Positions 4,096 to 63,039 of a stretch of 64,000 nt of DNA are shown here, one piece after another. Numbering within the stretch: position 1 is the first letter of the stretch; each line of letters starts with the position of its first letter. Source of the DNA: Candidatus Moanibacter sp. (GTDB taxonomy: Bacteria > Verrucomicrobiota > Verrucomicrobiia > Opitutales > UBA2987). The position numbers and the translations under genes were made by a program. The notes under the pieces were generated by a model, which was given only the letters and a program-made list of their open reading frames with translations, had not been told where the DNA came from and did not search any database. The stretch covers positions 54,393 through 118,392 of the forward strand of contig CBDCEW010000090.1 of assembly GCA_965215885.1 (NCBI GenBank), read 5' to 3'.

Positions 4096-5725
4096 ATCAT
4101 ACATCGATCTTCATCGAAGAAGCGATCCCTGGGGTAATGATTTTTATTTTCGATCGAGCAATGGTTGCGAATTTTCGAGAGGAACTGTTGAGGGCTCAAA
4201 TCGGCGGGATCGAGACTGCTTACGTAGTAAGAGCGTTCAGAGGAAGGTTCAGCTTTGTTTGGATAATGGAAGGTGCGTTGCACACAGGCGAACTGGCGGG
4301 CATGGGGCAGGCCGGCAGAGGGAGCGCTTAGAGAATGGGTTGCTATTTGACGTATTTCGAGTCGCCCATGGTCATTGTCCACGGTTTGGTGGAGAAAAAG
4401 GGGGTGGAGCTGAAGAGATTCTGAGCGTATTGATGCATGTTGGGCTGATTGTCTTTAATTTGAATAACATAGTCAGCACTGAGTTCTTCGACGACGATGT
4501 GGGCAGTTTCTTTTTGATTATGCATGGCGTCGAAGGTGAAGGTGGAGCCGTCCAAAATGGGCATCTTTCGCAAGAGAGTCTGGGCGGCGGTGATCTCGTT
4601 GGATTTATCGGCGGTAGCGACTTGGGCTAAGGTTTGAGCGCTTTGGTGATCGACTGCGGCCACCAGGTGCAGAGCCTTTGATTCTTCGGTGTTTGTGCCT
4701 TTGAGGGTCTTGCCGTCGACGGCAATATCGCGGGGCAAACAGCCGTCTTGTAAGCAGATGAATTCGGTGAGGGTTTTATCGAAGAGCTCGGCCTTTACGT
4801 TTTGCAAGACCCGATAGAAGACATCATAGCAAGGGGCCTTATAGCGGCCTGTTTTGGGGTTTTTCCAGGAGCGTAAGGCGCGCAATTGGGCTTGATTGAG
4901 ATGATGGGCCAGGCGCACGATGCCCTTGAGGGTCTGTTTGCCGCACATCGTGCCGAGCACAATCATGCTCAGGACCGTGGCGAGCCGATATCTAAGGCCC
5001 GCTTTACGACGGAAGTCTTCTATCTGATTGAAGCGTTCCCACAGGCTGCTCATCTGTTCCACTTTGAGGCAGACCGCATGGGAGTTATCGGTTTCATTGA
5101 GCGCCTGGCTCTGTGCCGCGGGCAATGGCCCTGAAGCGCGCAAAAGCTCAAGGGCATTAGCCTTGAGGGGTTTGACCCAGATCTGCTTGGGACGCTCATG
5201 GCGTTGATAGAAATCTTCGCGTTGGCGGCCATATCCCGCGCTCAAGCCCAAGGGCGTCCACCCGCTCGCTTCGTAGCAAGTGCCCCGGTGAATCTGTGGG
5301 TCCACGAACGTTTCCGCTACTAAGGGACGATAGCCAAAAGCCTCCTGCCAGTGATCGGCTAAGACTCTCAGGCACATACCCAACGTCTTGGAGGCCAAAT
5401 TTGCAAGATCCACCCCGGGCAAAATCAGAAAACGCCGGTTCTGTACTACCAGTTTCAATCGTGCATGCCGTTGCGCCCCGTCCCACCCGATCCATTCGTC
5501 TCGATCCTTCAGCCGGTAGGATGCGGCCCCCCACAAGAGCAGGCCCATCCATTGCCCGTCGATCTGCGCCACATAGCGCAGGGTCTCTCCTGCGCTGCCC
5601 GCACTGTGTAAATAATGATGTTGTTTCAATAGATCATTGAATCGCTCCTGCTCTTCGGGCAGGACCAGACGCAGAGTTAAACGATCTATCGAAGGATTCA
5701 GTTGGTAAGATTTTTTGTCTTTCAT
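4096..5725 (-). CDS. DUF4338/DruA-like domain fused to ISAs1 DDE transposase, in two frames (ORFs 4343..5725 and 4071..4382); truncated
   Basis: N-terminal HHYL...RDEWIGW...NRRFLILP...GTCYEASGW; then IAVDGKTLKG, KSNEITAA, TFDAMHNQ, IKDNQP; second frame HGRLEIR...RNHCSIEN. Confidence 0.85.
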
Positions 5726-41402: not shown

Positions 41403-42237
41403 GCACTTGAGTTTCCCTTTCTGATGGTCGGCTCGCGTCTACGGGCCAGATCGAGAATAGAGCGAGAGCGAAAATCGTCAGGCAGCACCAGGCAAAACTC
41501 CTCGAGAGTAGCTTGTTGGATAAATTTAGAACGAGGGCGAGTGTATAGGCTAGCCAGATGATTAGCGAAATCAGGAGCTTGGGGATTCTCACCTGCTCCC
41601 AATCACCGACCCAATAGTAGGCGCCTACAATCAGAGAAAAGGTCAGGACGAACACGCCCGTTATGAGAAGACGCCTGTTAATCTGGTCAAGTTGGACAAT
41701 TGACGGAAGGACTGAATAAACGCCCGTGTATTTTTTCCCTTTTAATCCGTAATTCTGGAGCAGATACATGGCTGAAGTTAAAGCCAATACGGCAAAGACG
41801 CCGTAGCTGAACATGGCGGAGGAAGCGTGTGCCTCAATCCATGGATTGTCGCCGAATATGCTTCTTTCGTAGGGTCGATCCCAGGCAGTTATGGAAAGTG
41901 ACAGAATTCCCAATATCGCCGCCATGCCGACACTGAAAAATCCGAGCAAGCTGATTCGAAAGGCGGGACCGACAGCGAGATAGAGTAGGACTACAGACCA
42001 CGTAATGAATTGTATGATCTCGAAGACGTTGCCCACTGGGCAGCTCTTAACCTCCAGACCGCGCAGATATAAACCGCACGTCTGGAAACAGAATCCAACG
42101 ACGGCGAGGAGCAGCACAGCCAGCCGGGAATGAGATCTCCTTCGCTTTAAGGAAAAAAGAACATAACCAAACCCAATACTGTAAAAAATCGTACCAATCC
42201 AAAGTAAAATCCGCTCATCTGTCAGTAAGGAGTTCAT
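41389..42237 (-). CDS. Cytochrome c assembly CcsA/HemX-like membrane protein
   Basis: Multi-TM protein with WIEAH, LPSIVQLD and PKL; overlaps hemA. Confidence 0.82.
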   Translation of the reverse strand: MNSLLTDERILLWIGTIFYSIGFGYVLFSLKRRRSHSRLAVLLLAVVGFCFQTCGLYLRGLEVKSCPVGNVFEIIQFITWSVVLLYLAVGPAFRISLLGFFSVGMAAILGILSLSITAWDRPYERSIFGDNPWIEAHASSAMFSYGVFAVLALTSAMYLLQNYGLKGKKYTGVYSVLPSIVQLDQINRRLLITGVFVLTFSLIVGAYYWVGDWEQVRIPKLLISLIIWLAYTLALVLNLSNKLLSRSFAWCCLTIFALALFSIWPVDASRPSERETQVHGNG

Positions 42238-42306
42238 CAGAAAACGTTTTCTACTTGATCAATAGATGCTCGTAGCATGCTTGGCGATGGGTTATGCGGA
42301 TACGAA

Positions 42307-42374
42307 CGAATAGTTCCCGTTTTCCGCTACCGTTCTACCTGAATTCGTAGCGGAAAGCGGGAGCTTTTCGTCAA
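42307..42374. repeat. GTAG-type REP doublet
   Basis: CGAATAGTTCCCGTTTTCCGCTAC ... GTAGCGGAAAGCGGGAGCTTTTCG. Confidence 0.8.
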
Positions 42375-42398
42375 CCGAAATAGAAAATAAGACTCCAT

Positions 42399-42720
42399 AT
42401 TACTATCCGTCAAAACTTAGTTTTTTGAACACATTTTGGAGTGTAACATGTTGGTATTCAAGGTAGTAGAGTCGACCCGTCGTCGCTCTGCTTTGCCGAG
42501 GCATGCAAGGTTACCAAGGTATTCCGAGTTACCTTCTCGATTCGATCAAGAATCTCCTCACTGTTTATGAGTTCGGGGTGAGCTTGTCGAACCGTTGGGA
42601 ATCCCTCTTCATCAAATCTGCGGTTTTCTCGAATCCGTGGTACCTTCTTCTTTATTCGCGTTCATTTGCGTCCATTTGCGGTTCTCTTTTTCTTTTTTGG
42701 TTGCGGCTACGCTGCGCTAG
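42399..42720 (+). mobile_element. Family-A non-autonomous element A1
   Basis: Starts ATTACTATCCGTCAAAA, ends TTGGTTGCGGCTACGCTGCGCTAG; T|G junction. Confidence 0.75.
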
Positions 42721-42752
42721 GGCGATTTGTAGCGTCTGATGAACAATAGACA

Positions 42753-43769
42753 CTATTTCAGCCATTCTTCAATTCTCCCCGAGAGGAACCGAATCCACGA
42801 AGGATGATCGTTCATGCAGGGGAGCAGCGTTAATGAACCCCCTCCCGCACGTTCGAAAATCTCCTCTCCCATTATTGCGATCTCTTCAAGGGTCTCAAGA
42901 CAGTCTGTCACGAATGCCGGGCAGATTACGAGAATCTTCCGAATTCCCTCGTTTGCGAATCTCACCAGTTCATGATCCGTGTAGGGTTTCAGCCAGGGTT
43001 TGCGTCCCAGACGCGATTGAAAAGAGACGGCATATTTGCCTTCTGGGATTTCGGCTCTTTGCACAAATAGCTCTACTGTTTTGAAACACTGGTAGCGATA
43101 GCAGGTAGCGTGGGCGGGATGGGGAGTCTTGCAGCAATCTTTAACGGAGAGACAGTGAGCATGCGAGGGATCGGTTTTTCGGATATGGCTTTCGGGCACG
43201 CCGTGAAAGCTGAAGAGCAGTAAATCGTAATCATCTTCCAGGTGTGGAGCGGCCGAATCAACCAGGGCCTCGATGTACTTCGCGTCCTTATAAAACGGTT
43301 GCAGGATCGAGGTCTCAATACTCCGTTTCCGGCGCGCGACTTCTTCCGTCGCACACACAAGGGCGGTTTCATAGCTGGCCATCGCGTAGTGTGGATAAAG
43401 TGGCATTATCAAAAGTTCTTCGAGACCGTTGTCTACAAGATCGGCAATCGTATTGGCGATCGATGGCCTGCCATAGCGCATGGCCAGGGCTACAGGCACT
43501 TCGGTCTCTTGTTGCACAAGTTCCCGTTGTCGTTTGCTCATCGTGACCAGGGGCGATCCGTTGGGGCCCCATATTCGGCTGTAGGCTTCCGCTGATCGCT
43601 TGGGCCGGAACGGCAAAATCAAGAGATTCAGAATAAGAAACCGGGATAGCGGTGAGGTATTGATGACACGCTCATCCGAAAGAAACTCCCGCAAATAGCG
43701 GCGGACGTCGGGTACCGCAGTCGAATCGGGAGAACCGAGATTAAGTAGAAGAACCGCCTTCTTGCTCAT
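42753..43769 (-). CDS. hemH: Ferrochelatase
   Basis: LLNLGSP, PLYPHY, FSFHGVP, FQSRLG..WL.P, DCLETLEE. Confidence 0.96.
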   Translation of the reverse strand: MSKKAVLLLNLGSPDSTAVPDVRRYLREFLSDERVINTSPLSRFLILNLLILPFRPKRSAEAYSRIWGPNGSPLVTMSKRQRELVQQETEVPVALAMRYGRPSIANTIADLVDNGLEELLIMPLYPHYAMASYETALVCATEEVARRKRSIETSILQPFYKDAKYIEALVDSAAPHLEDDYDLLLFSFHGVPESHIRKTDPSHAHCLSVKDCCKTPHPAHATCYRYQCFKTVELFVQRAEIPEGKYAVSFQSRLGRKPWLKPYTDHELVRFANEGIRKILVICPAFVTDCLETLEEIAIMGEEIFERAGGGSLTLLPCMNDHPSWIRFLSGRIEEWLK

Positions 43770-44611
43770 AGGTTTGAAGCTAGATGGTTCAGGATGGATG
43801 AAATTGTCAAATTGTATCGGACGCCCATCTTAATTCGAAGGGGAACGGCAGAGGCCAAAAGTCTCAAAGTCGAAAGTCGCAGGTTAGGGGAGGAGGAATC
43901 ACGAGAATCATGGGGTCCGGTCGTCCGGTTTTCGATTCTGTAGAGTGAAAAATCGAAGACTCTGGTTCCTTACAGAGAATGCACGTTGAGGAGGCAAGGG
44001 AGCCCTTTCGAGTGAGACATATGTTCGTTATTCGTCGAAATACGAACAATCGGTAAAGTTCGAAGTAAATCGCGGTCACAGAGCGCCACAGAGAAGCACA
44101 GAGATTCACGGAGAATTGTAAATGGGAATATAGAAAGTTGGGAGGGTTCGACCGCGCACGACTCTGCTAAACGGCAGAGTGGATGAGGAACACAGATTGA
44201 CATTTTAGTAAGGAAGGCAGGAAAGCCCTTCGACTACGCTCAGGTCAGGCAGGATTGCCCAAACTATAGACCGAGGTAGGAGTCGACTTCGTCTCTCTGC
44301 CATCCGGCAGAGCCTGAAACGCGAAGAAGAGCTTTCCCAAGAGCGCGACCGAATTATTAGCCCACGAATAGCGCTTTTGGGAAAACTATTCTTTGCGTTT
44401 CTCGACTCGCATAAGCGAGTTTGCGAAGTCGACACCCTATTGCCCATCCCGCGACTGCGAGATCTAAGTCCTCTCTCTATCCGTTCCATCCGTGAAATCC
44501 GCGGTCATGCTGATCCCGATCGACCTTACGTCGAAAGATGTTTCCCGGTCCTCCCGGCAAGCCGGACTCCTCAGAAGGACTTACTAGCTTACTTGCGGCT
44601 TTGCTGCGCTA

Positions 44612-44787
44612 GCCCGCATATTTCACACACTTCGTCGCGAGACAGCGGAGGTTGCGGCGGATCAAGGGCTTACCAAAGTCCGGCGGATGACGGTGTGTTG
44701 GAACACGTGGAAGTCGGCGGACGAGGCAAGTCGTTGAGGTGCCGTAAGATCCGCCGGCGTAGCAGATGGCTTGTGAAATTTGCGGGC
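44612..44787. mobile_element. Family-B MITE (176 bp) with TA duplication
   Basis: TIRs GCCCGCATATTTCACA / TGTGAAATTTGCGGGC flanked by TA; interrupts a family-A 3' end (GCTGCGC-TA-GG). Confidence 0.85.
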
Positions 44788-44868
44788 TAGGTGCTTCGGT
44801 GTGCCTCGGTGTTTCTCGGTGATGCTCTGTGACCCACTCTTCCAATACTCCATCACTCCACCATTCCA

Positions 44869-46233
44869 TTAATCCAACAGAGCTCCGACTTTGCGTGCTG
44901 TCTCGATGCCCGAAGATATACAGTCACCGACTGCAACTCCGTCACGAAAATTCCCGATTATGGAGAGGGTGGGGTGTGCGCGCTCCACCTCAGCGATACT
45001 CTCAAGAAATTTTCCATAGCCGAGAACATACTGTGGAATCGCTCGCTTCCAGAAATAGTGTTTCGTAAAGACCGGTTCTCCCGTGATACCGAGAAGCATT
45101 CTGAGTTCATCCGTTGTGAGTCTGGTTAGGTCGTCGGGGGGCATGGAAGCGAGTTCTGGTCGAAGCATACCGCCAAGCAAGGTGGTAAGGGTAACGTGGC
45201 CTTCCGGGCACCGGCCAGGGAACATTGTGGAAGAGAAGATAGTGCCTAGAATATTCCGGGTTTCAATGGCCGGTACAAGCATTCCGAAGCCGTCGAGGGG
45301 ATGTTGCACATCTTCCCTGCGATGTCCGGAGACGACAATAGAAAGGGGGGCGTAGGGAATCTTACTGAGAAAGGCGATCGATTCTTTGGTGGGGCAAGCG
45401 AAAGGCAAAGAAGCCGCTCGATGGGCGGGAAGCGATAGGATGAGGGCTTGAAACGACGCCGTTCTCTCTTTGCCCTCTTGGTTCCACGCCAATTTCCAGC
45501 CGTCTTCTTCTGTGATGCTCTTGATATCCGAACGAAGATTGAGATTATCGTGTAATCGCTCGCCGAGAGCCTGAGGTATTGTATGCATACCCTTCCGAAA
45601 AGAGACGATGCCCATACCCGATGGTGTAGCGCCCTTTTTGCGGCGCTTTTGCACCTTGCGGCTTCCTTTGAGTATGGAACCGTATTTCTGCTCCAGGGCC
45701 CAGATTCTCGGGAGTGCGGATCTGACTGATAGATTCTCCGGATCACCCGCGTAAATCCCGGTTATCAACGGATTTACGATGTAATCCAGGATTTCACTTC
45801 CCAGGCGTCGTCTTACGAATTCGCCTACGCTCTCCTCTTCATTCGGGTTACTTCTACGAACAAACGGTTCCCGTAGGACCCGCATTTTCGCGCCGGGAGA
45901 GATGATGCTGCTCGTCAGTATCGCGAGTGGCGAAGGTGAAATCGAATGTGGTTTTCCGCCCCGCACGATAAAGCGTTTCTTTAATTTTGGATTGGCCTCT
46001 GCGATTTCGGAAGTGAGATCCAACTCTTGCAGAAAGTCCTCTACTTCCGGTTGGGTAATCCGCATCGAATTGGGGCCGGCTTCCGCCAGAAAACCCTCCT
46101 CAGTGTCCGTTTGGATAACTCCGCCGACCCGAAGAGAGGATTCGAATACGAAAACTTCGAATTCCCGCTTCTTAAGCTCATAGGCGGCGCTCAGTCCGGT
46201 AATGCCTGCCCCAATGACTGCAACTTTCTTCAT
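44869..46233 (-). CDS. hemY: Protoporphyrinogen/coproporphyrinogen oxidase (HemY type)
   Basis: GAGITGL, EAGPNS, GIYAGDP, GFGMLVP, AIPQY. Confidence 0.93.
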   Translation of the reverse strand: MKKVAVIGAGITGLSAAYELKKREFEVFVFESSLRVGGVIQTDTEEGFLAEAGPNSMRITQPEVEDFLQELDLTSEIAEANPKLKKRFIVRGGKPHSISPSPLAILTSSIISPGAKMRVLREPFVRRSNPNEEESVGEFVRRRLGSEILDYIVNPLITGIYAGDPENLSVRSALPRIWALEQKYGSILKGSRKVQKRRKKGATPSGMGIVSFRKGMHTIPQALGERLHDNLNLRSDIKSITEEDGWKLAWNQEGKERTASFQALILSLPAHRAASLPFACPTKESIAFLSKIPYAPLSIVVSGHRREDVQHPLDGFGMLVPAIETRNILGTIFSSTMFPGRCPEGHVTLTTLLGGMLRPELASMPPDDLTRLTTDELRMLLGITGEPVFTKHYFWKRAIPQYVLGYGKFLESIAEVERAHPTLSIIGNFRDGVAVGDCISSGIETARKVGALLD

Positions 46234-46261
46234 TCTCGCTAGATGTCAGCGAAATAATGCA

Positions 46262-46466
46262 ACCACGGATGACACAGATTGTCACGGATGATGATCGAGT
46301 TCAGTGGGGAGTCTCTACCGTACGGCAGTGCAGTGCGAAATCGACTCTTCCCGACTTTCTATATTTTCAACTACCATTCTCTGTGCTTCCTTGGCACAGC
46401 GCATCCCGCTCAGCGGGATTGCTACCCTCTCCAATCCCATCCGTTAAATCCGCGTAATCCGCGGTC
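46262..46466. repeat. CACGGAT-type inverted tandem-repeat element
   Basis: Left arm ACCACGGATGACACAGATTGTCACGGAT, right arm ATCCGTTAAATCCGCGTAATCCGCGGT. Confidence 0.7.
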
Positions 46467-46511
46467 AAATTCCTCTTGCTCGCAGTGGGTTCTTCTAACG
46501 GATTTCCTTAT

Positions 46512-47537
46512 TCAGTGGAATCCTACTACCGTATCGATCATAGCCTGGACGTTCTCGATCTTCGCGGAAGGTTGGATGCCGTGACCGAGGTTGAAGATAT
46601 GGCCATTGTAGGGCCGCATGTCCTCCATGATTTTTGAGGTCTCGCTGACGACTCTCTCCGGGTTTGCATTGAGAATTTCAGGATCGAGATTTCCTTGGAG
46701 AGCTACAGGTGTGGGCAGTGCCTTCCGAATCTCACTGAGCTTCACAGTCCAGTCCATGCTGAGGACCTTGGCGCCGGTGCCGATCAGATCAGAAGTGTGG
46801 TGGGCCATTCCTTTGGCAAAGAATATTACAGGAAAGCGCTCCGGTAATGCGTCGACAATCCGCCTGATCCAGCAGAGGGACATTTCCTTATAATCGGCGT
46901 CAGGACAGGCACCGCCCGAACTGTCGAATATCTGGAGAACGTCGACTCCGGCGGCAATCTGCATTCCGAAATAGTCGATTAAAGCCACCGTGACTTTTTC
47001 CAGGAGCTCGCTGAACTGGGCAGGCTCATTGTAAAAAAGATCCTTTATAAGTGAGAATTTCTCTGAGCGGCCGCCTTCAACCATGTAAGTTGCCAGCGTC
47101 CATGGTGAGCCCCCGAATCCGATCAAGGCCTTCTCCCCTCCCAGTTCTTTTCCGACAATGGTGAGAGTGCTCGCTACGTAGTTGAGTTTCTCGGCGATCG
47201 AATTAGGATCGAGTTGTTTAACGAGATGCGGTGAATCGATCTTATACTCCATTGCGATTCCTTCTGAGTCCGAATAGCTGTAGGGTTGTCCAAGGGCTTC
47301 AGGTATTACGAGGATGTCACTGAATACGATAGCGGCATCGAGATCGAATCGGCGCAAAGGTTGCAGCGTAACCGTTGCCGCCAGTTCCGGGGTCTTTGCC
47401 AGTTTCAGAAAGGAGTGACGCTTTTTCAGCGCTCGGTATTCGGGCAGATAGCGTCCGGCCTGTCGCATAATCCATATGGGCGTGCGGTCAACCGGTTCGC
47501 AGCGGCAGGCCGCTAAAAATCGCTCACGGGCATTCAT
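46512..47537 (-). CDS. hemE: Uroporphyrinogen decarboxylase
   Basis: PIWIMRQAGRYLPEY, FSDIL, QGNLDP, FNLGHG. Confidence 0.97.
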   Translation of the reverse strand: MNARERFLAACRCEPVDRTPIWIMRQAGRYLPEYRALKKRHSFLKLAKTPELAATVTLQPLRRFDLDAAIVFSDILVIPEALGQPYSYSDSEGIAMEYKIDSPHLVKQLDPNSIAEKLNYVASTLTIVGKELGGEKALIGFGGSPWTLATYMVEGGRSEKFSLIKDLFYNEPAQFSELLEKVTVALIDYFGMQIAAGVDVLQIFDSSGGACPDADYKEMSLCWIRRIVDALPERFPVIFFAKGMAHHTSDLIGTGAKVLSMDWTVKLSEIRKALPTPVALQGNLDPEILNANPERVVSETSKIMEDMRPYNGHIFNLGHGIQPSAKIENVQAMIDTVVGFH

Positions 47538-47710
47538 TTTGATGCTTTCCGCTATTGAGTTTCATAGATTTCGACCGCGGATTGCGCGGATTGGCGCTGA
47601 TGAAGAGTAATAAAGATATGTTTGAATGCCCTGCCAATGTACGGATGAGCGCTAAAAAAAACTGGTTCGACAGACTCAAGGCAAGCGAAAGTGAATTCAC
47701 CACGGATGAC

Positions 47711-48204
47711 CTGGCGCAGCCAAGCCGCAACCAAAGGAATGTGTTAGCAACGAATGAATGAAGGGCAACGAATGGGGAGTGTGAGAGCATTGAAAGCAAC
47801 GGATCAGGAACGGCGAGGAATAAATGAAGAAGAGAATTCCCACGGATGGCTCCGCAGTACCACGGATGGAAGAGGTAGTTTGCCGCGGATTCGAGAATAC
47901 CGCGGATTGGGGAAAAGGCATCGAGACAGCTGGAAAGAATTCAAAGAGAATGAGGGAAGTGCTCTCAAGCTTATTACGGCAAGTTTCGGGACGAGGTTTG
48001 CTTCGCTGGGTTCTGAGTAGGTCTGCGGTGAGCCGAACCCGTTAACAGTAAGGACAATCATGTTCGAATTTTAGAAGGAACTCCGACCTCCCTAGTAACC
48101 TTGTCGCGAACTTCGTCCCGAACCTTGTCGATCGCACTATCTTGAATTCCAACACATTACACTCCAGAACACGTTCAGAAAACAAAATTCAGATGGATTG
48201 TAGT
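47711..48204 (-). mobile_element. Family-A element A2
   Basis: ACTACAATCC...TTGGTTGCGGCTTGGCTGCGCCAG on the minus strand; removal restores CCACGGATGAC|ACGGATTTACACGGAT. Confidence 0.75.
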
Positions 48205-48348
48205 ACGGATTTACACGGATAGGAGAACGCGAATTTGTAAGCTAGGAATCCATAAAGGTGCATGCTGCGCGAGATTAAAGGCCAAGACAGAGTCGAGTCC
48301 CTGTTCTCCGTTCGGTCATCGCGGGTTCCATGTCCTCTCCCCATCCGT

Positions 48349-48581
48349 ATTACAATCCGTAAAATCTTTGTTTTTCTAGCAAGGTTTGGCGTAGAAAAGG
48401 CTGATATTCAATGAAATGCAGTCGACCCGTCGTCGCTGCGCTTTGCCGAGGCAGGCAAGTTCGCGAGTGAGGTTCGCGACGAGGTTTCCATGGGAAGTGG
48501 GAGTTTCCTTATGCATTCGCGTCCATCTGCGTTCATCTGCGGTTCTCTTATTCTTTTTTGGTTGCGGCTTCGCTGCCCCAG
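48349..48581 (+). mobile_element. Family-A element A3
   Basis: ATTACAATCCGT...TTGGTTGCGGCTTCGCTGCCCCAG; removal restores ATCCGT|GCAATCCGTG. Confidence 0.75.
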
Positions 48582-48798
48582 GCAATCCGTGCTAAAATTC
48601 TACCGAACTCCGTTCGAAGGATGCTTTGCTGTCCTCCGCTCTTTGCGTCTTTGCGACTTCTTGACAGGGCGAAGTCCCGCTCGCGGGTCGAAGACCGTTG
48701 CGTGAGAAATCTTTCCCTTTCATCTACGTTTCTCTCTCCTGACCTGTCGTGCCTCGCTGAAGACCCGCTCTGCGGTACGAGGCGTAGAATCCTCCGGG

Positions 48799-49395
48799 TC
48801 AACTGAGCTGCCTTCGCCCCTCAAGGGCACTCTTCAGCGTAACGGCATCGGCGTAGACGATGCCTCCACCGCTGGGGAGGCCGAATCCAATACGAGTTAC
48901 CTGGATATCGATTCCGGCGGTGATGGTTTCCTGAATATAGTGGCAGGTAGCCTCGCCTTCGATGTCGTTGGAGAGGGCGAGAATGACTTCCTCGACCGAA
49001 TTGTCCTGAAGACGGCGATCGAGGCCGCTGAGATTGATATCTTCAGGACCGATGCCATCGATGGGAGCCAATTTCCCATGAAGTACATGGTAGGTACCCG
49101 CATAAGCTCCGGAACGTTCGATCGCTACGAGGTCCGGGACCTGCTCGACTACACAGATGACTCCTTTATTCCGTTTTGGATTCCGGCATACTTGACACAT
49201 TTCTTCATCGCACAGGTTTCCACATACTTTGCAGGGCGATACTTTCTCTTTCGCCTCCTGAAGCGCCTCCACCAGTTCGGGAAGGTCGTCAGGCCTCTCC
49301 ACGGTGAGGTGCAGGGCAATGCGCTCCGAAGACCGAAAGCCGATCCCCGGAAGTTTCTTGAGGACCTTCTGCAGGTTTTCAAAGGAAGGGGTCAT
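48799..49395 (-). CDS. recR: Recombination mediator RecR
   Basis: LPGIG, C4 zinc finger, YHVLHG, EGEAT. Confidence 0.96.
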   Translation of the reverse strand: MTPSFENLQKVLKKLPGIGFRSSERIALHLTVERPDDLPELVEALQEAKEKVSPCKVCGNLCDEEMCQVCRNPKRNKGVICVVEQVPDLVAIERSGAYAGTYHVLHGKLAPIDGIGPEDINLSGLDRRLQDNSVEEVILALSNDIEGEATCHYIQETITAGIDIQVTRIGFGLPSGGGIVYADAVTLKSALEGRRQLS

Positions 49396-49644
49396 AAGGG
49401 AATGTAGATTGAATTTGACCGCGGATTACGCGGATTTACACGGATGGGGGGAACGACGGAGGCTACTTCCAGCCATGAGCCTGCTTGCCTCGGCAAACCG
49501 CAGTGACGACGGGTCGAATGGGAGACACCGAGGTCCAACCGAGCCTTTGTCGTAAGCTTCGTCGTCAACTTAATCGCCATTTCAGGTTGCTCTCTAGAGG
49601 AGGCTTACGATGAAGTTTTGGAGGTAAAAATAAGGTTCTTTCAT

Positions 49645-49952
49645 TCAAAATAGTCCCGGAAAATTCATTCCGGAAGAGACTTTGCCCATCTCTTCCTCGC
49701 TAGCTTCTTTCGATTTAGCGTGGGCTTCCTGGATGGCCGCCAGAAGAGTCTCCTCAACAAACTCCGAATCCTCCTTCAGAAATTCCGGGTCGAGACTTAT
49801 CGCCAGAATATCCTGCTGGCCGTTCACTTTTACCTTCACCGCCCCCCTCCACTTGAGACTTCTATCTCGCGCTGAGCCAGCTCCTCCTGAACGGCCTCCA
49901 TCTTCTTCTGCATCTTCTGCGCTTGCTTCAGTAATTTTCCTACTCCTGGCAT
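49645..49952 (-). CDS. ybaB: YbaB/EbfC nucleoid-associated protein, frameshifted in a G6 run (49842-49847)
   Basis: MPGVGKLLKQAQKMQ...SSGG then shifted AVKVKVNG...LDPEFL; adjacent to recR. Confidence 0.88.
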
Positions 49953-50070
49953 GGTGATAAAAAGTGAGTGTGAACGTGAATGTGACTGTGAAAGAGAGAG
50001 TAATATCCCACGGATTCAGGTCAACCACAGATCAAGACGATAGAACTCAACTACGGATAACGCGGTTTGC

Positions 50071-50425
50071 CTAGCGTAGCGAAGCCGCAACCAAATTGGT
50101 AGGTGCTTCCATGGAGAAGAGAATTGAACAGAAGGAAACGAAGAGAACCAAGAGGAATGAAGAGGGATTGTTTCCCATCCCGGCGCGCCGGGACTCCGCA
50201 GTACCACGGATTGGAAGGATCCCGCTGAGCGGGAAGATAAGAAAAACCGTAGATTCACGCAGATGGACACGAATGGAAAAGGAAACTCCTACTTCCCTGG
50301 TAACCTTGTCCCAAACTTGCCTGCCTCGGCAAAGCGCAGCGACGACGGGTCGACTTCACTACTTTAATACCAGCATGTTACACTCCAAAACGTGTTCAGA
50401 AAACCAACTTTTGACGGATTGTAAT
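50071..50425 (-). mobile_element. Family-A element A4
   Basis: ATTACAATCCGTCAAAA...TTGGTTGCGGCTTCGCTACGCTAG on the minus strand; removal restores GGTTTGC|ACAGAT. Confidence 0.75.
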
Positions 50426-50751
50426 ACAGATGGGGAGAGCCATCCGTGGGAATACTCTTCCTCTTTTATTCCACGCCGTGCCTCATTCGTGGTTCGCCCT
50501 CTTACTTTGGTTGTGCGTTCGACCCGCTGAGCGGGTCGAAGGGCGGCTATGCTTCTCTGTGGCCGCCATTCAGTCACGAATTTACCGTTTGTTCTTAGCC
50601 TACATGCAAAACATATCTACGCAGTTCGCACAAGAGTTGAGGGGAAAAACAGTATTATCTCATTTCCCCACTAATTCACGGTTCCCGCACGAAGCACAAA
50701 TTGCGTTGTTAATCGGTGAATGCGTGAGCAAGATTTGAACTGAGCAAAATC

Positions 50752-51669
50752 ATGGATACAATCGACAGCGAAGGTGTGAAATCATACCTCCTATCACTTC
50801 AGCGGACGATCAGTGACGCTATCAATGCTGCTGATCAGGAAGCCAAATCCAAAGAGGATCCCTGGCAGCGTCCGGACGGGGGCGGTGGCATATCGAACAT
50901 CTTTGAAGAGGGTTCGATATTCGAGAAATGTGGCGTCAACTTTTCGGACGTTAAGGGCAGCCAGCTACCGGCATCCGCCACGGCTCGCCGATCGGAACTT
51001 GCGGGCAGGGGCTTTCGTGCCATGGGAGTATCGGTAGTCATACATCCGACAAACCCCTATGTGCCGACGACTCACATGAACGTGCGCTTCATTACTGCCG
51101 AAGCGGAGGAGCATGCACCGATCTGGTGGTTTGGAGGAGGATTCGATCTCACTCCGTTTTACGGTTTTGAAGAGGATGCCGTTCACTGGCACGAGACCGC
51201 GAAACTCGCCTGCGATCCATTTGGCAGCGGTCTCTACGATCGGTTCAAAGAGGAGTGCGATCGCTACTTCTTTCTCCAGCACAGGAATGAGACGCGCGGC
51301 GTCGGTGGTCTCTTTTTCGACGATTTCGACGAGCTTGGGTTCGCGCGGTCCTTCGGCTTCATTCGCAGTGTAGGAGACCACTTTCTTCCCGCTTACCAGC
51401 CCATTCTGGAAAGGCGAAAGGAAATGCCCTACGGGGAGAGGGAGAGGCAATTCCAACTCTATCGGCGCGGACGGTATGTGGAATTTAATCTTGTATACGA
51501 TCGCGGCACCCTTTTCGGCCTTCAATCTTCAGGACGCACCGAATCCATTCTTATGTCGCTGCCTCCACTGGCGCGATGGGACTACGACTGGTCTCCAGAG
51601 CCGGGCACTCCGGAAGCGCAATTGTATGACGATTTTCTTAAACCGCGAGACTGGCTCGGCGGCCCGTGA
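50752..51669 (+). CDS. hemF: Oxygen-dependent coproporphyrinogen III oxidase
   Basis: [30 protein letters not shown]. Confidence 0.97.
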
Positions 51670-53116: not shown

Positions 53117-55010
53117 CACGGTATTTTGATTCTCGGAGCATTAGGTGATGATATTGATGGCCTTATGTAAGTTAAAGACGAAATCATCACAGAGTGCGGG
53201 AGTGGATTCAGCGCCCATGGAAGACTTGAGGCTGAGAACCAGTTGCCTGCATGCAGCAAGAATTCTGGCTGCGTTATGATTACGGATCATACATCGATCT
53301 TCATCGAAGAAGCGATCCCTGGGGTAATGATTTTTATTTTCGATCGACCAATGGTTGCGAATTTTCGAGAGGAACTGTTGAGGGCTCAAATCGGCGGGAT
53401 CGAGACTGCTTACGTAGTAAGAGCGTTCAGAGGAAGGTTCAGCTTTGTTTGGATAATGGAAGGTGCGTTGCACACAGGCGAACTGGCGGGCATGGGGCAG
53501 GCCGGCAGAGGGAGCGCTTAGAGAATGGGTTGCTATTTGACGTATTTCGAGTCGCCCATGGTCATTGTCCACGGTTTGGTGGAGAAAAAGGGGGTGGAGC
53601 TGAAGAGATTCTGAGCGTATTGATGCATGTTGGGCTGATTGTCTTTAATTTGAATAACATAGTCAGCACTGAGTTCTTCGACGACGATGTGGGCAGTTTC
53701 TTTTTGATTATGCATGGCGTCGAAGGTGAAGGTGGAGCCGTCCAAAATGGGCATCTTTCGCAAGAGAGTCTGGGCGGCGGTGATCTCGTTGGATTTATCG
53801 GCGGTAGCGACTTGGGCTAAGGTTTGAGCGCTTTGGTGATCGACTGCGGCCACCAGGTGCAGAGCCTTTGATTCTTCGGTGTTTGTGCCTTTGAGGGTCT
53901 TGCCGTCGACGGCAATATCGCGGGGCAAACAGCCGTCTTGTAAGCAGATGAATTCGGTGAGGGTTTTATCGAAGAGCTCGGCCTTTACGTTTTGCAAGAC
54001 CCGATAGAAGACATCATAGCAAGGGGCCTTATAGCGGCCTGTTTTGGGGTTTTTCCAGGAGCGTAAGGCGCGCAATTGGGCTTGATTGAGATGATGGGCC
54101 AGGCGCACGATGCCCTTGAGGGTCTGTTTGCCGCACATCGTGCCGAGCACAATCATGCTCAGGACCGTGGCGAGCCGATATCTAAGGCCCGCTTTACGAC
54201 GGAAGTCTTCTATCTGATTGAAGCGTTCCCACAGGCTGCTCATCTGTTCCACTTTGAGGCAGACCGCATGGGAGTTATCGGTTTCATTGAGCGCCTGGCT
54301 CTGTGCCGCGGGCAATGGCCCTGAAGCGCGCAAAAGCTCAAGGGCATTAGCCTTGAGGGGTTTGACCCAGATCTGCTTGGGACGCTCATGGCGTTGATAG
54401 AAATCTTCGCGTTGGCGGCCATATCCCGCGCTCAAGCCCAAGGGCGTCCACCCGCTCGCTTCGTAGCAAGTGCCCCGGTGAATCTGTGGGTCCACGAACG
54501 TTTCCGCTACTAAGGGACGATAGCCAAAAGCCTCCTGCCAGTGATCGGCTAAGACTCTCAGGCACATACCCAACGTCTTGGAGGCCAAATTTGCAAGATC
54601 CACCCCGGGCAAAATCAGAAAACGCCGGTTCTGTACTACCAGTTTCAATCGTGCATGCCGTTGCGCCCCGTCCCACCCGATCCATTCGTCTCGATCCTTC
54701 AGCCGGTAGGATGCGGCCCCCCACAAGAGCAGGCCCATCCATTGCCCGTCGATCTGCGCCACATAGCGCAGGGTCTCTCCTGCGCTGCCCGCACTGTGTA
54801 AATAATGATGTTGTTTCAATAGATCATTGAATCGCTCCTGCTCTTCGGGCAGGACCAGACGCAGAGTTAAACGATCTATCGAAGGATTCAGTTGGTAAGA
54901 TTTTTTGTCTTTCATCCCATCTTAACATGACTGATTCCCTCGGGTTTGTTTAGCTCTTTTTTTATCTTCTTGCTTATCAGCTAGTTGCTTCCTGGAATCC
55001 TTTTACCCTG
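53117..55010 (-). mobile_element. ISAs1-type element, copy 2 (complete)
   Basis: Imperfect TIRs CAGGGTAAAAGGATTCCAGG / CACGGTATTTTGATTCTCGG; no matching target duplication. Confidence 0.88.
53141..54915 (-). CDS. DUF4338/DruA-like domain fused to ISAs1 transposase, requiring a -1 shift at CCCCCTTTTT (ORFs 53533..54915 and 53141..53572)
   Basis: Same motifs as copy 1; second frame HGRLEIR...RNHWSIENKNHYPRD..FDED. Confidence 0.88.
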
Positions 55011-56382: not shown

Positions 56383-57110
56383 ATGGCTACTTCTCGGATA
56401 TTGGTGAAACATCAAACGGCGGTCTACCATTGTATTTCGCGTACGGTATTGGGAGAGAAAATCATTGATTCGAGGGGGAAGGAGGTATTGCGCAAGCAGA
56501 TGTATCGGTTTTTATGAAGGAACTCAAGCAGCGCTTCAGTATTTGGTTTAACCGCACCCACGAGAATCATGGGACTCTATGGTCGGAACGCTTTAAGAGT
56601 CTGTTGGTGGAGAATAATCCCGAAGCGCTCAAGGTGGTAGCGGCTTACATCGACCTAAATCCGGTACGGGCGGGCCTGTGCGGAGACCCGAAGAGCTATC
56701 GATGGAGTGGGTATGCGGAGGCTTTGAGCGGAGAAGAGCAGGCGCAGAGAGGCCTGGAGTGGATCATGGGAGTGGAGAATTGGGCGGAGGCGCTGCGCGG
56801 GTATCGGACAGTCGTCTTTGGGACCGGTTACCACGGCAAGGACCGAGAGGGAGCGAGGATTGATCCACAGAAAGTCAAAGAAGTACTGCAAAGCGGAGGC
56901 AAAGTGAGTATTCAGGAGCTGTTGCGCTGCCGGGTGAGGTATTTCACGGACGGAGCGATCCTGGGAACGAGAGAATACATCCAAAGCTGGTATGAAGAGA
57001 ATCGGGAGCGCCTGGGAAAGAGGAGAAAAGAAGGGCCGAGGCGGATGCGGGGAAGCGAATGGGGAGAGCTGGCAATCTTGCGCGATCTAAGAAGTGAGGT
57101 CTTCGAATAG
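56383..57110 (+). pseudogene. Y1 (HUH) RAYT-like transposase with an internal deletion removing the HUH motif
   Basis: N-terminus AVYHCISR...LRKQM joined out of frame to FMKELKQRF...GTLWSERFKS...YIDLNPVRAG...YRWS. Confidence 0.8.
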
Positions 57111-60835: not shown

Positions 60836-61488
60836 AGTTCGTCTGTTGGAGAGATTTTAAACTATTGTCGAAAACCTGATCAGTTTGCCAAGAATATCCT
60901 ACCTCATGCGGAAACGCGCCCTTAGAGTATCGGCCTACACTTGCAAGCCAAAGGTACTCCAATCATCCTCTACCAATGTGGGAATTGCTCTACTCCATCC
61001 CGAGCTTTCATGCAACAGGATTCGCAGATTTGCAGAATTGATCGCAATACTCCGCCACCTTGAACCCGCCCAGCGGGACGAGAACAACGCAGCTGGGCGT
61101 GGCAATCCAGAGAAAGGCAGGAGGGGCATTCACTATTCCTGGATCGCCGCGCCTCCCTTCGGTCGGCTCGCGATGACAGTGTGCTACTATTCAATTGCTG
61201 GAGTAATAATCTACAGAACGCTATTAATAATTAATTGGTGAACTGTTGAATCTGTGAATTGTTAATGATCGATAGGATGGTCGACTACAGATCACGATTG
61301 AGAGTCACGATGGAAGAGAGGGAATAAATTCGATCTTCCTTCCTAGACCTTATCCGAAAAGCTACTGATTGGCCGCAAAGAGGCGCAAAAGGCGCAAGAA
61401 AAACTTGAGAAAAATCATTTTTTGGCTTGATAAAAAGTGTCGCAACATGCTAGTGTTTAACAACCTAAGATTAAGAAAAGAGTTAAAC

Positions 61489-63039
61489 ATGCCAACATGT
61501 GCGACAGAGGAGAACAAAAGCGATAAGACGCCCCTTAGCAACCTCATTCTGCCGGTTCCAGACACGGATTTCCGTGATTTTCTGGATGAAGTTGAAGAAT
61601 TGGCCGGGTTCGCGGCGCAAATCATCGAGGCGATCGAGAAGGATCTGGACGCCCATGCGCGTGAGAAGAAGAAACTTCGATTGGAAGATCGCAGGTTCTT
61701 TGAAGGGCGCACAGCGGAGCTGCCGGAGCTGGACATCGAGGAGGAGAATATTCTGGCTGCTGAATTGAATCTTGGGGTAGGCCGGCCGCGGATGCCGGCT
61801 TATGCGGTATACGTGTTCGTGATGATTCGAGGGTTTCTGGGTTCGTTGACCACGAAACCGGCACGGCGGTTTGTGCGCGAGTCGATGAGCTTGTACGGAT
61901 TTTTGCAGAGCGGGGGACTGAGAATGCCGGCGGTGACGACGATTCTGGAGAACGTGAACCTGGTCAGCCATACGACCCGCGAGTTGATCTTTGATAAACA
62001 GATTGGGTTTATCCTCCAGGAGCAATGGGACGATTTCGGGAAGCTGACGATCGACAGCACCTCGGTGAAAGCAAACAGCTGCTGGCCCACCGATGGGAAG
62101 ATTCTGAGCGGTCTTTTGATGCGGGCCAATCGTTTGGGTCAGAAGTTGCATGTCTTCGGGCTGGAGGATTTTCGCAAGGGATGGGTTGGGCGTTGGCTGG
62201 AGGAAATGGACAAGCTGGAGTTTCAGATTTGTCTGGCCGCGGGCAAACCGAAGTCGAAGGGCAAGCTGAAGAAACACTACCGGCGGTTGCTCAAGCGGGG
62301 CCGCAAGGCGGCCGACTCACTAACGGGGGAACTGAGCCATCTTGAAGAGGGCCTGTCGATGGATTCACTGCCTCCCACTCGCCGGGAGCTTCTGGAGCGG
62401 GCATTGAGCCAGATCAGGGGCGATATTGCCGACGCCAAGCGGGTTGTTGAGTATGCTCATGATCGGGTGTTTCACGAAAAGAAGCTACCGTCCACACAGA
62501 AGGTCCTGAGCCTCTCGGACGGATCGGCGGCCTACATCAAGAAGGGCAGCCGCAATCCAGTGATCGGGTACAAGCCACAACTGGTTCGCAGCGAAAACGG
62601 TTTTGTCACCAGCCTGATCGTACCGCAAGGCAACGCGGCAGACTCCATTGAGCTGGCGCCGGCCATCGGCGATTCGATCAAGCGCACCGGTGTCATTGCT
62701 GAACTGGTCAGCACCGATGACGGATATGCTTCGGCGAAGGGACGCAAGGAGGTGCTGAGCATGGGGGTAAAGCAGATCAGTATCAGTGGGGCGAAGGGCA
62801 AGAAGTTGACCACCCCCGAGGACTGGGAGAGCGAGGCGTATCGCGAGGCACGCCGCGATCGCTCCGCAGTGGAGTCGCTGATGTTCACGATTAAAGATGG
62901 ATTTGCCTTTGGCGAACTCGGCCGCCGCGGCATCGATGCGGTAGGCGATGAACTGCTCGAGAAGGTTCTGGCCTACAACTTCTGCCGCATCATACTGATG
63001 AAGAAACGCCGAGGGGAGGAACTGGAACAGGCAGCCTGA
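61489..63039 (+). CDS. IS5/ISNCY-like DDE transposase
   Basis: GRP, TIDSTSVKAN..WPTD, STDDGY, RSAVES; start probably M61489 rather than 61369. Confidence 0.85.
   Translation: MPTCATEENKSDKTPLSNLILPVPDTDFRDFLDEVEELAGFAAQIIEAIEKDLDAHAREKKKLRLEDRRFFEGRTAELPELDIEEENILAAELNLGVGRPRMPAYAVYVFVMIRGFLGSLTTKPARRFVRESMSLYGFLQSGGLRMPAVTTILENVNLVSHTTRELIFDKQIGFILQEQWDDFGKLTIDSTSVKANSCWPTDGKILSGLLMRANRLGQKLHVFGLEDFRKGWVGRWLEEMDKLEFQICLAAGKPKSKGKLKKHYRRLLKRGRKAADSLTGELSHLEEGLSMDSLPPTRRELLERALSQIRGDIADAKRVVEYAHDRVFHEKKLPSTQKVLSLSDGSAAYIKKGSRNPVIGYKPQLVRSENGFVTSLIVPQGNAADSIELAPAIGDSIKRTGVIAELVSTDDGYASAKGRKEVLSMGVKQISISGAKGKKLTTPEDWESEAYREARRDRSAVESLMFTIKDGFAFGELGRRGIDAVGDELLEKVLAYNFCRIILMKKRRGEELEQAA

Follow-up and report, generated by a model that had tools for sequence, protein, structure and literature searches.

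Insertion sequences (ISs) of the IS200/IS605 family and the REP/RAYT systems insert 3′ of a short conserved sequence without target duplication and have small non-autonomous derivatives, while Helitrons, also without duplication, end in a 3′ hairpin followed by a CTAG-type terminus. In the part of the literature covered, all rolling-circle and single-strand transposons are HUH-driven. As described in the available portion of PMC13181058, IS91 has its target beside the origin (ori), a palindrome beside the cut at the terminus (ter), its gene downstream of ter and no duplication. Here, we analyzed a stretch of 64,000 nucleotides (the window; contig CBDCEW010000090.1) from the Candidatus Moanibacter sp. 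assembly GCA_965215885.1 (G000; 105 contigs, 90.3% complete, 5.47% contamination), in which four short non-coding elements with unlike ends had been recognized from the sequence. These copies are real members of a genome-wide family of paired-end elements, and they are probably miniature, non-autonomous derivatives of an unannotated ∼1.7-kb IS with a Rep_trans-like (TBP-fold) tyrosine nicking-closing enzyme that carries a C-terminal winged helix.

The four copies lie exactly where, and on the strands on which, the original prediction placed them (Table 1), and a search of the window with hidden Markov models (HMMs) of the two ends recovers just four left and five right ends. The fifth right end had also been noticed, though it finishes at 44612 rather than 44611, lacks the TTGG start and is followed by the C of a different repeat; the left block common to the copies exists as described, with a measured length of ∼85–115 bp instead of ∼75–100 bp. 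As claimed, the copies' ends show neither terminal inverted repeats (TIRs) nor target duplication, and all four junctions are T^G (^ marks a junction or cut), with ATCYGT^G (the repeat CACRGAT) rebuilt at three of them and CTCCAT^G present at the copy starting at 42399. The genome-wide search for both end motifs that had been proposed as a check anchored 83 left and 122 right ends across G000. At 43 of the 83 left ends a same-strand right end follows within 800 bp downstream, where 1000 random placements give a mean of 1.06 and a maximum of 6; a right end lies upstream of the left end in 0/83 cases and on the opposite strand in 5/83. Left and right ends are therefore coupled. A looser cut-off yields 61 left–right pairs, mostly of 190–500 bp, and the miniatures define the minimal cis ends, a left one of ∼40 bp and a right one of ∼25 bp. 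The stem is GCGGC/GCTGC at 90 of the 122 right ends. No structured RNA was found among Rfam families (0 matches at gathering score in window positions 42000–50800).

Tabulated across the assembly, the insertion preference is TYYGT^G, with the predicted T^G junction dominant: the left flank has T at −5 (79/83), G at −2 (71/83) and T at −1 (78/83), and G follows 105 of the 122 right ends. At 31 of 43 sites the flanks do not overlap; the 2-bp overlaps (12/43 sites, and 7/16 full-length copies from another genome, below) were considered as target duplications and rejected as chance GT. A gap-free empty paralogue exists for 8 of the 43 sites, the best being 96.7% identical over 90/90 nt, and several other empty paralogous matches are merely more copies of the target repeat. 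Once rebuilt, 21/43 sites fall within two YTYYGYG units in tandem, as do 515 of 11,958 TYYGT^G sites genome-wide and 249 of 2,214 non-coding ones (11%; enrichment P 1e-9 versus non-coding). The proposal that the repeat acts as a landing pad thus stands as a strong preference and falls as a requirement, because full copies also interrupt ordinary genes. Target-type tandem repeats also flank GxxExxY genes in G000 and in L004. Left ends, for example at 42399–42411, carry ATCCGT/ATCCAT six bases in, resembling the second unit of the tandem target; copies in genome G395 do not.

Long copies encoding an enzyme between the same ends, another proposed check, were found in other phyla; the long pairs of G000 hold nested or host genes only. 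Scanning GTDB genomes with the right-end pattern gave at least 106 loci in many phyla, and five right-end loci share a family of open reading frames (ORFs) that begins just inside the right end and reads inwards. When 80 metagenome loci were picked by protein alone and then checked for ends, the strict hairpin end preceded the gene in 52, and a near-complete 5-bp stem was present in 58 of the 73 with sufficient DNA. Paired stem changes occur in 4 of these 58 (CCGGC/GCCGG, CTGGC/GCCAG, GCGGG/CCCGC), a tally rather than a formal covariation test. The clearest host is G636, of the same order as a locus titled Brocadiaceae, where at least 16 of 28 candidates scored are equal-scoring intact genes. 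The 16 copies that were fetched each measure 1,700 bp and carry one 518-aa gene, with 0–2 base differences; they begin ACTACTATCCATC after T (YYGT in 13/16), finish GGCCGCGCTAG before G and lie within the same type of tandem repeats in 11/16 cases. Removing two of them in silico restores reading frames, in one case that of a nucleotide-sugar dehydrogenase and in the other that of a HigB-like gene. The window's end type is also seen in G626, G395, G608 and L269, and around frameshifted genes in L023 and L227 as the far end. Miniatures of 173–176 bp accompany full copies in G626 and G636, and those of G626 have the window's GCGGC-N3-GCTGC right end. In L332 a 504-to-2136 joint appears in three DNA runs, and a loose end in one run matches the 173–176-bp miniature. 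In short, the full-length elements occur in several copies at unrelated positions, bear both of the window's end types, use YYGT^G as insertion site without duplication and are found alongside short derivatives. In a tree of 107 proteins, six with the window-type end fall in one clade of eight (support 0.958; 37 rows unlabelled); since kin share labels, this tells no more than which clade is the partner. Right ends in G395, L266 and L309 finish CCGT or CTGT and are target-like, as a shared nick site would predict.

Several observations were made around these loci. The clade of representative protein P0001, which includes L033, has a different far end (TAG^RRTCT), and clades in L117–L196 and L294–L312 have other far ends and targets (TAG^RRTCT, TATAGT^ATTAC, TTAG^TATC); some TAG-clade copies lie within GGATTAG-type tandem repeats. 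L330 holds two full-length copies in adjacent tandem-repeat units, at different YYGT sites, and the full-length element of L227 contains, at L227:2420–3440, a nested element of ∼1 kb that by eye is IS630-like. A distant protein branch (L255, L274–L279, L289, L290) of ∼550 aa, multi-copy in G588 and without the GGTTGCGGC end, may be a separate IS group. At L332, 90–97% of the element's words occur in six runs on record as RNA (X15–X20), of which X16 covers the gene; these may be DNA carry-over. The element protein has no match in viral contigs or phages, and 10 plasmid records match it.

P0001 (509 aa) belongs to no Pfam or NCBIfam family. The G636 protein, P0271, is 33% identical to it over 504 aa, and matches neither Pfam nor the NCBIfam ISNCY models. 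Relatives number 3,785 clusters among 8,000 candidates scored, and 6,990 representatives at 50% identity. The predicted model has a TBP-like fold, with TBP and Rep_trans initiators as its nearest structures, followed by the winged helix, and D, E, YxK and RxE positions are conserved (D20, YxK and LRxE kept). The Rep_trans profile PF02486 gave no match and is absent among the 25/30 families listed for 72 members; compared at the sequence level, with no residue superposition, motif I reads Q/E-x-E, motif II was not found and motif III is without its last E. The family has no conserved HxH motif, so the HUH enzyme implied at the outset is not supported. A PDB sequence search gave only weak ferritin and MarR matches, and a further match was to the viral protein A0A345MNV4 (probability 0.99, E 5.7e-3), which is cited in the available part of the Rep-Arvir paper (PMC13107129). 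To judge from the model, the enzyme is closer in appearance to the rolling-circle nicking proteins of plasmids than to any known class of transposase.

Compared with described systems, the element as a whole is most like IS91/ISCR (IS91, IS801, IS1294), with which, as far as the available text of PMC13181058 describes them, it shares unlike ends, absence of TIRs and duplication, a short target at ori, a palindrome at the ter cleavage site and a gene reading from ter to ori. It differs in an enzyme without an HUH motif or PF04986 match, in the TBP fold and winged helix, and in a target of YYGT^G where the IS91 side is CTTG/GTTC. The modelled enzyme resembles Rep_trans (PF02486) initiators and MOBT relaxases (RepDE 4cwc, RepSTK1 4cij) in its TBP-like fold, a tyrosine on a β-strand, the Asp of motif N′ and the YxK and LRxE motifs. 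In contrast to these, it has no HMM match, diverges in motifs I–III, reaches ∼510 aa with its winged helix and is the sole gene of a chromosomal IS, whereas the known proteins are initiators of plasmids, phages or integrative and conjugative elements. Rep-Arvir (RepSNJ2), according to the same portion of PMC13107129, likewise joins a Rep_trans-like domain to a MarR-like winged helix and is recognizable by structure only; it starts replication of archaeal viruses and plasmids, whereas our element is bacterial with transposon-like ends, and the two are compared by fold only. Helitrons share the 3′ hairpin then CTAG, the lack of duplication and modular interiors (partly from PMC10288648), but the present element is bacterial, has no HUH domain or helicase, has its hairpin abutting CTAG and uses a target longer than a dinucleotide. 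The mode of insertion, lack of duplication and small derivatives also recall IS200/IS605 and REP/RAYT, although the partner here is not a Y1 HUH enzyme and the ends enclose no Y1 gene. Unlike IS110/IS1111, there is no DEDD (PF02371) gene within the ends, and the overlap is 0 or chance GT with no shared core; unlike a classical DDE miniature inverted-repeat transposable element (MITE), there are no TIRs and no target duplication.

Because the layout follows IS91, with the hairpin end upstream of the gene and the target at the other end, a single-strand mechanism like that of IS91 fits best; the predicted non-autonomous family with single-strand mobilization is to this extent upheld, without HUH. 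The enzyme would nick YYGT^R at the left end (ori; YYGT^A in the element) and become linked through the YxK tyrosine, and host replication would displace the nicked strand as far as ter, where a second cut would follow the hairpin-CTAG (CTAG^G). As in IS91, the displaced strand would then be joined to a YYGT^G target. We infer which end is ori by likeness to IS91. In the strand that ends CTAG-3′ the GCGGC/GCTGC stem contains a G·T pair, in the other strand an A·C mismatch, which is a weak hint as to the strand transferred. In G000, miniatures would have spread while a full copy was present, the full copy having since been lost or left unassembled, and would then have gathered micro-repeats and deletions, giving the modular interiors and many left-truncated copies.

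Three points limit this account. The structural match of the enzyme to Rep_trans is moderate; neither G000 nor G006, a genome with miniatures of the same kind, has the transposase, and the link to it runs through shared ends and target; and no circle junction was seen. No head-to-tail junction was found, including in 5 genomes, with 1-mismatch counts at control level, and no circle joint is listed in the contigs of 4 runs, two of which may represent the source sample, although contigs drop rare variants and cannot show absence. Non-replicative excision of the same IS by the same protein as a circle, through IS200/IS605-like peel-and-paste or IS110-like double-strand recombination, would fit the unlike ends, the lack of duplication and the one-sided target equally well, and orphan right ends are common while read-through cargo beyond ter is not shown. 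Yet the fold and motifs resemble those of replication initiators, the gene-to-end layout is that of IS91 and the two junctions share no core in this clade, and we regard circle excision as unlikely.

That G000's own enzymes, whether IS200-type/RAYT Y1, IS91-type Y2 fragments or IS110, moved the miniatures is highly improbable. The genome does hold 29 PF01797, 12 PF02371 and 2 PF04986 matches, and tblastn and profile searches found no member of the 518-aa family; a search of 7 further genomes of the family found none either, while the positive control, G323, was detected. However, none of the Y1, GxxExxY, IS110 or Y2 genes of G000 is bounded by paired left and right ends, and in other genomes it is the 518-aa gene that such ends enclose. 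Long paired copies were read by eye and rejected as movers: that in contig C88 contains a 439-aa DDE-like ORF that is a nested gene, and those in C27 and C104 contain host ORFs. One contig stops 14 bp into a left end; no transposase gene sequence was seen at contig ends. We give least credence to the view that the ends are independent repeats and the elements patchworks from recombination among abundant intergenic repeats, for which speak the mosaic interiors, the recurrence of each sampled part at least 8 times in G000 and the 79 of 122 right ends that are unpaired. Ends are nevertheless strictly ordered and oriented, whole copies 94–98% identical sit in different flanks, and the coupling, the full elements with the same ends and the clean empty paralogous sites largely refute genome-wide independence.

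With a derivation from the Rep_trans-like IS still preferred, the decay of the family can be described. The unpaired right ends comprise 48 with at least 60 bp of body, 18 with less, 10 with a weak left end upstream and 3 in tandem, and we infer that the left-truncated copies are later deletions. At least one copy (C95) is lodged in another's right part, producing tandem right ends. Interiors also hold target-type repeats and a 30-bp micro-repeat (71 matches with ≤2 mismatches, mostly between GAC and AAGG, within GACAAGGTT repeats). A ∼37-bp palindromic unit occurs inside the right-end stem, 16/22 matches directly following GGTTGC (C104:175119, C27:1074, C92:7072, C68:2781), and 14-bp palindromes are abundant. 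Since the closest whole copies, one segmental duplicate aside, are only 94–98% identical, activity in G000 is past rather than current.

Table 1. Coordinates of the elements and associated features in the window
Feature	Position	Strand	Remark
Copy 1, non-autonomous, 322 bp	42399..42720	+	between hemH and a cytochrome c assembly gene
Copy 1 left end, RYTACWATCC... (putative ori)	42399..42445	+	homologous to the full-length elements' end just 3′ of the stop codon
30-bp micro-repeat at GAC^AAGG	42477..42506 (copy 1)	+	also 48427–48456 (+) and 50319–50348 (−); copy 2 without
Copy 1 right end (putative ter)	42697..42720	+	TTGGTT, 5-bp stem GCGGC/GCTGC, 3-nt loop, GCTAG
Orphan right end (hairpin and CTAG)	44593..44612	+	HMM E 0.022; without left end upstream; adjoins a different CTAG-starting repeat
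Copy 2, non-autonomous, 494 bp	47711..48204	−	excision in silico rebuilds a tandem ATCCGTG-type repeat
Host target half-site ATCCGT, left of copy 3	48343..48348	+	consensus TYYGT^G
Copy 3, non-autonomous, 233 bp	48349..48581	+	
Copy 4, non-autonomous, 355 bp	50071..50425	−	

The four copies lie among haem-pathway, recR and ybaB genes. An abundant repeat, CTAGCCCG..ATTTCACACAC, runs from 44609 on (237 G000 matches with ≤2 mismatches), starts at the CTAG that closes the fifth right end and looks like a TIR-type MITE targeting CTAG. Elsewhere in the window, equal-scoring ORFs at 4343–5725 and 53533–54915 (with 53141–53572) encode DruA (PF14236) fused with a DDE transposase of the ISAs1 type, and the C-terminal part of the second is in a separate ORF; a RAYT-like Y1 fragment (56514–57110) and an ISNCY-like DDE gene (61369–63039) fall under curated cut-offs. 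G000 also contains near-identical duplicated segments (C27 versus C104; C87:6861 versus C87:33604), one with a ∼90-bp palindromic insertion polymorphism, possibly reflecting strain mixture given the contamination estimate.

Our literature search, in which ISfinder and most subscription journals lay outside the material covered, found no description of such an element; for anammox genomes, the accessible part of PMC7709395 reports 38 groups of transposases, and the tables of that paper may list this gene. We lean towards the broader view that bacteria have a large class of transposons driven by a Rep_trans/TBP-fold tyrosine enzyme, rolling-circle transposition having arisen a second time from the non-HUH initiator superfamily; the clades of this class would have a common hairpin right end but different left ends, and different targets such as YYGT^G and NTAG^G, and miniatures would account for GGTTGCGGC-hairpin repeats across many phyla. 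If this is true, thousands of unannotated proteins that move with a Rep_trans-like enzyme would constitute a new transposase class, and a common unannotated repeat in many phyla would be explained. The short minimal ends make a trans-mobilization assay easy to build, and precise, scar-free insertion at a short clade-specific target has a possible use in genome engineering. What the window itself contributes is the non-autonomous family, its minimal ends, its preference for a repeat and its persistence without the enzyme.
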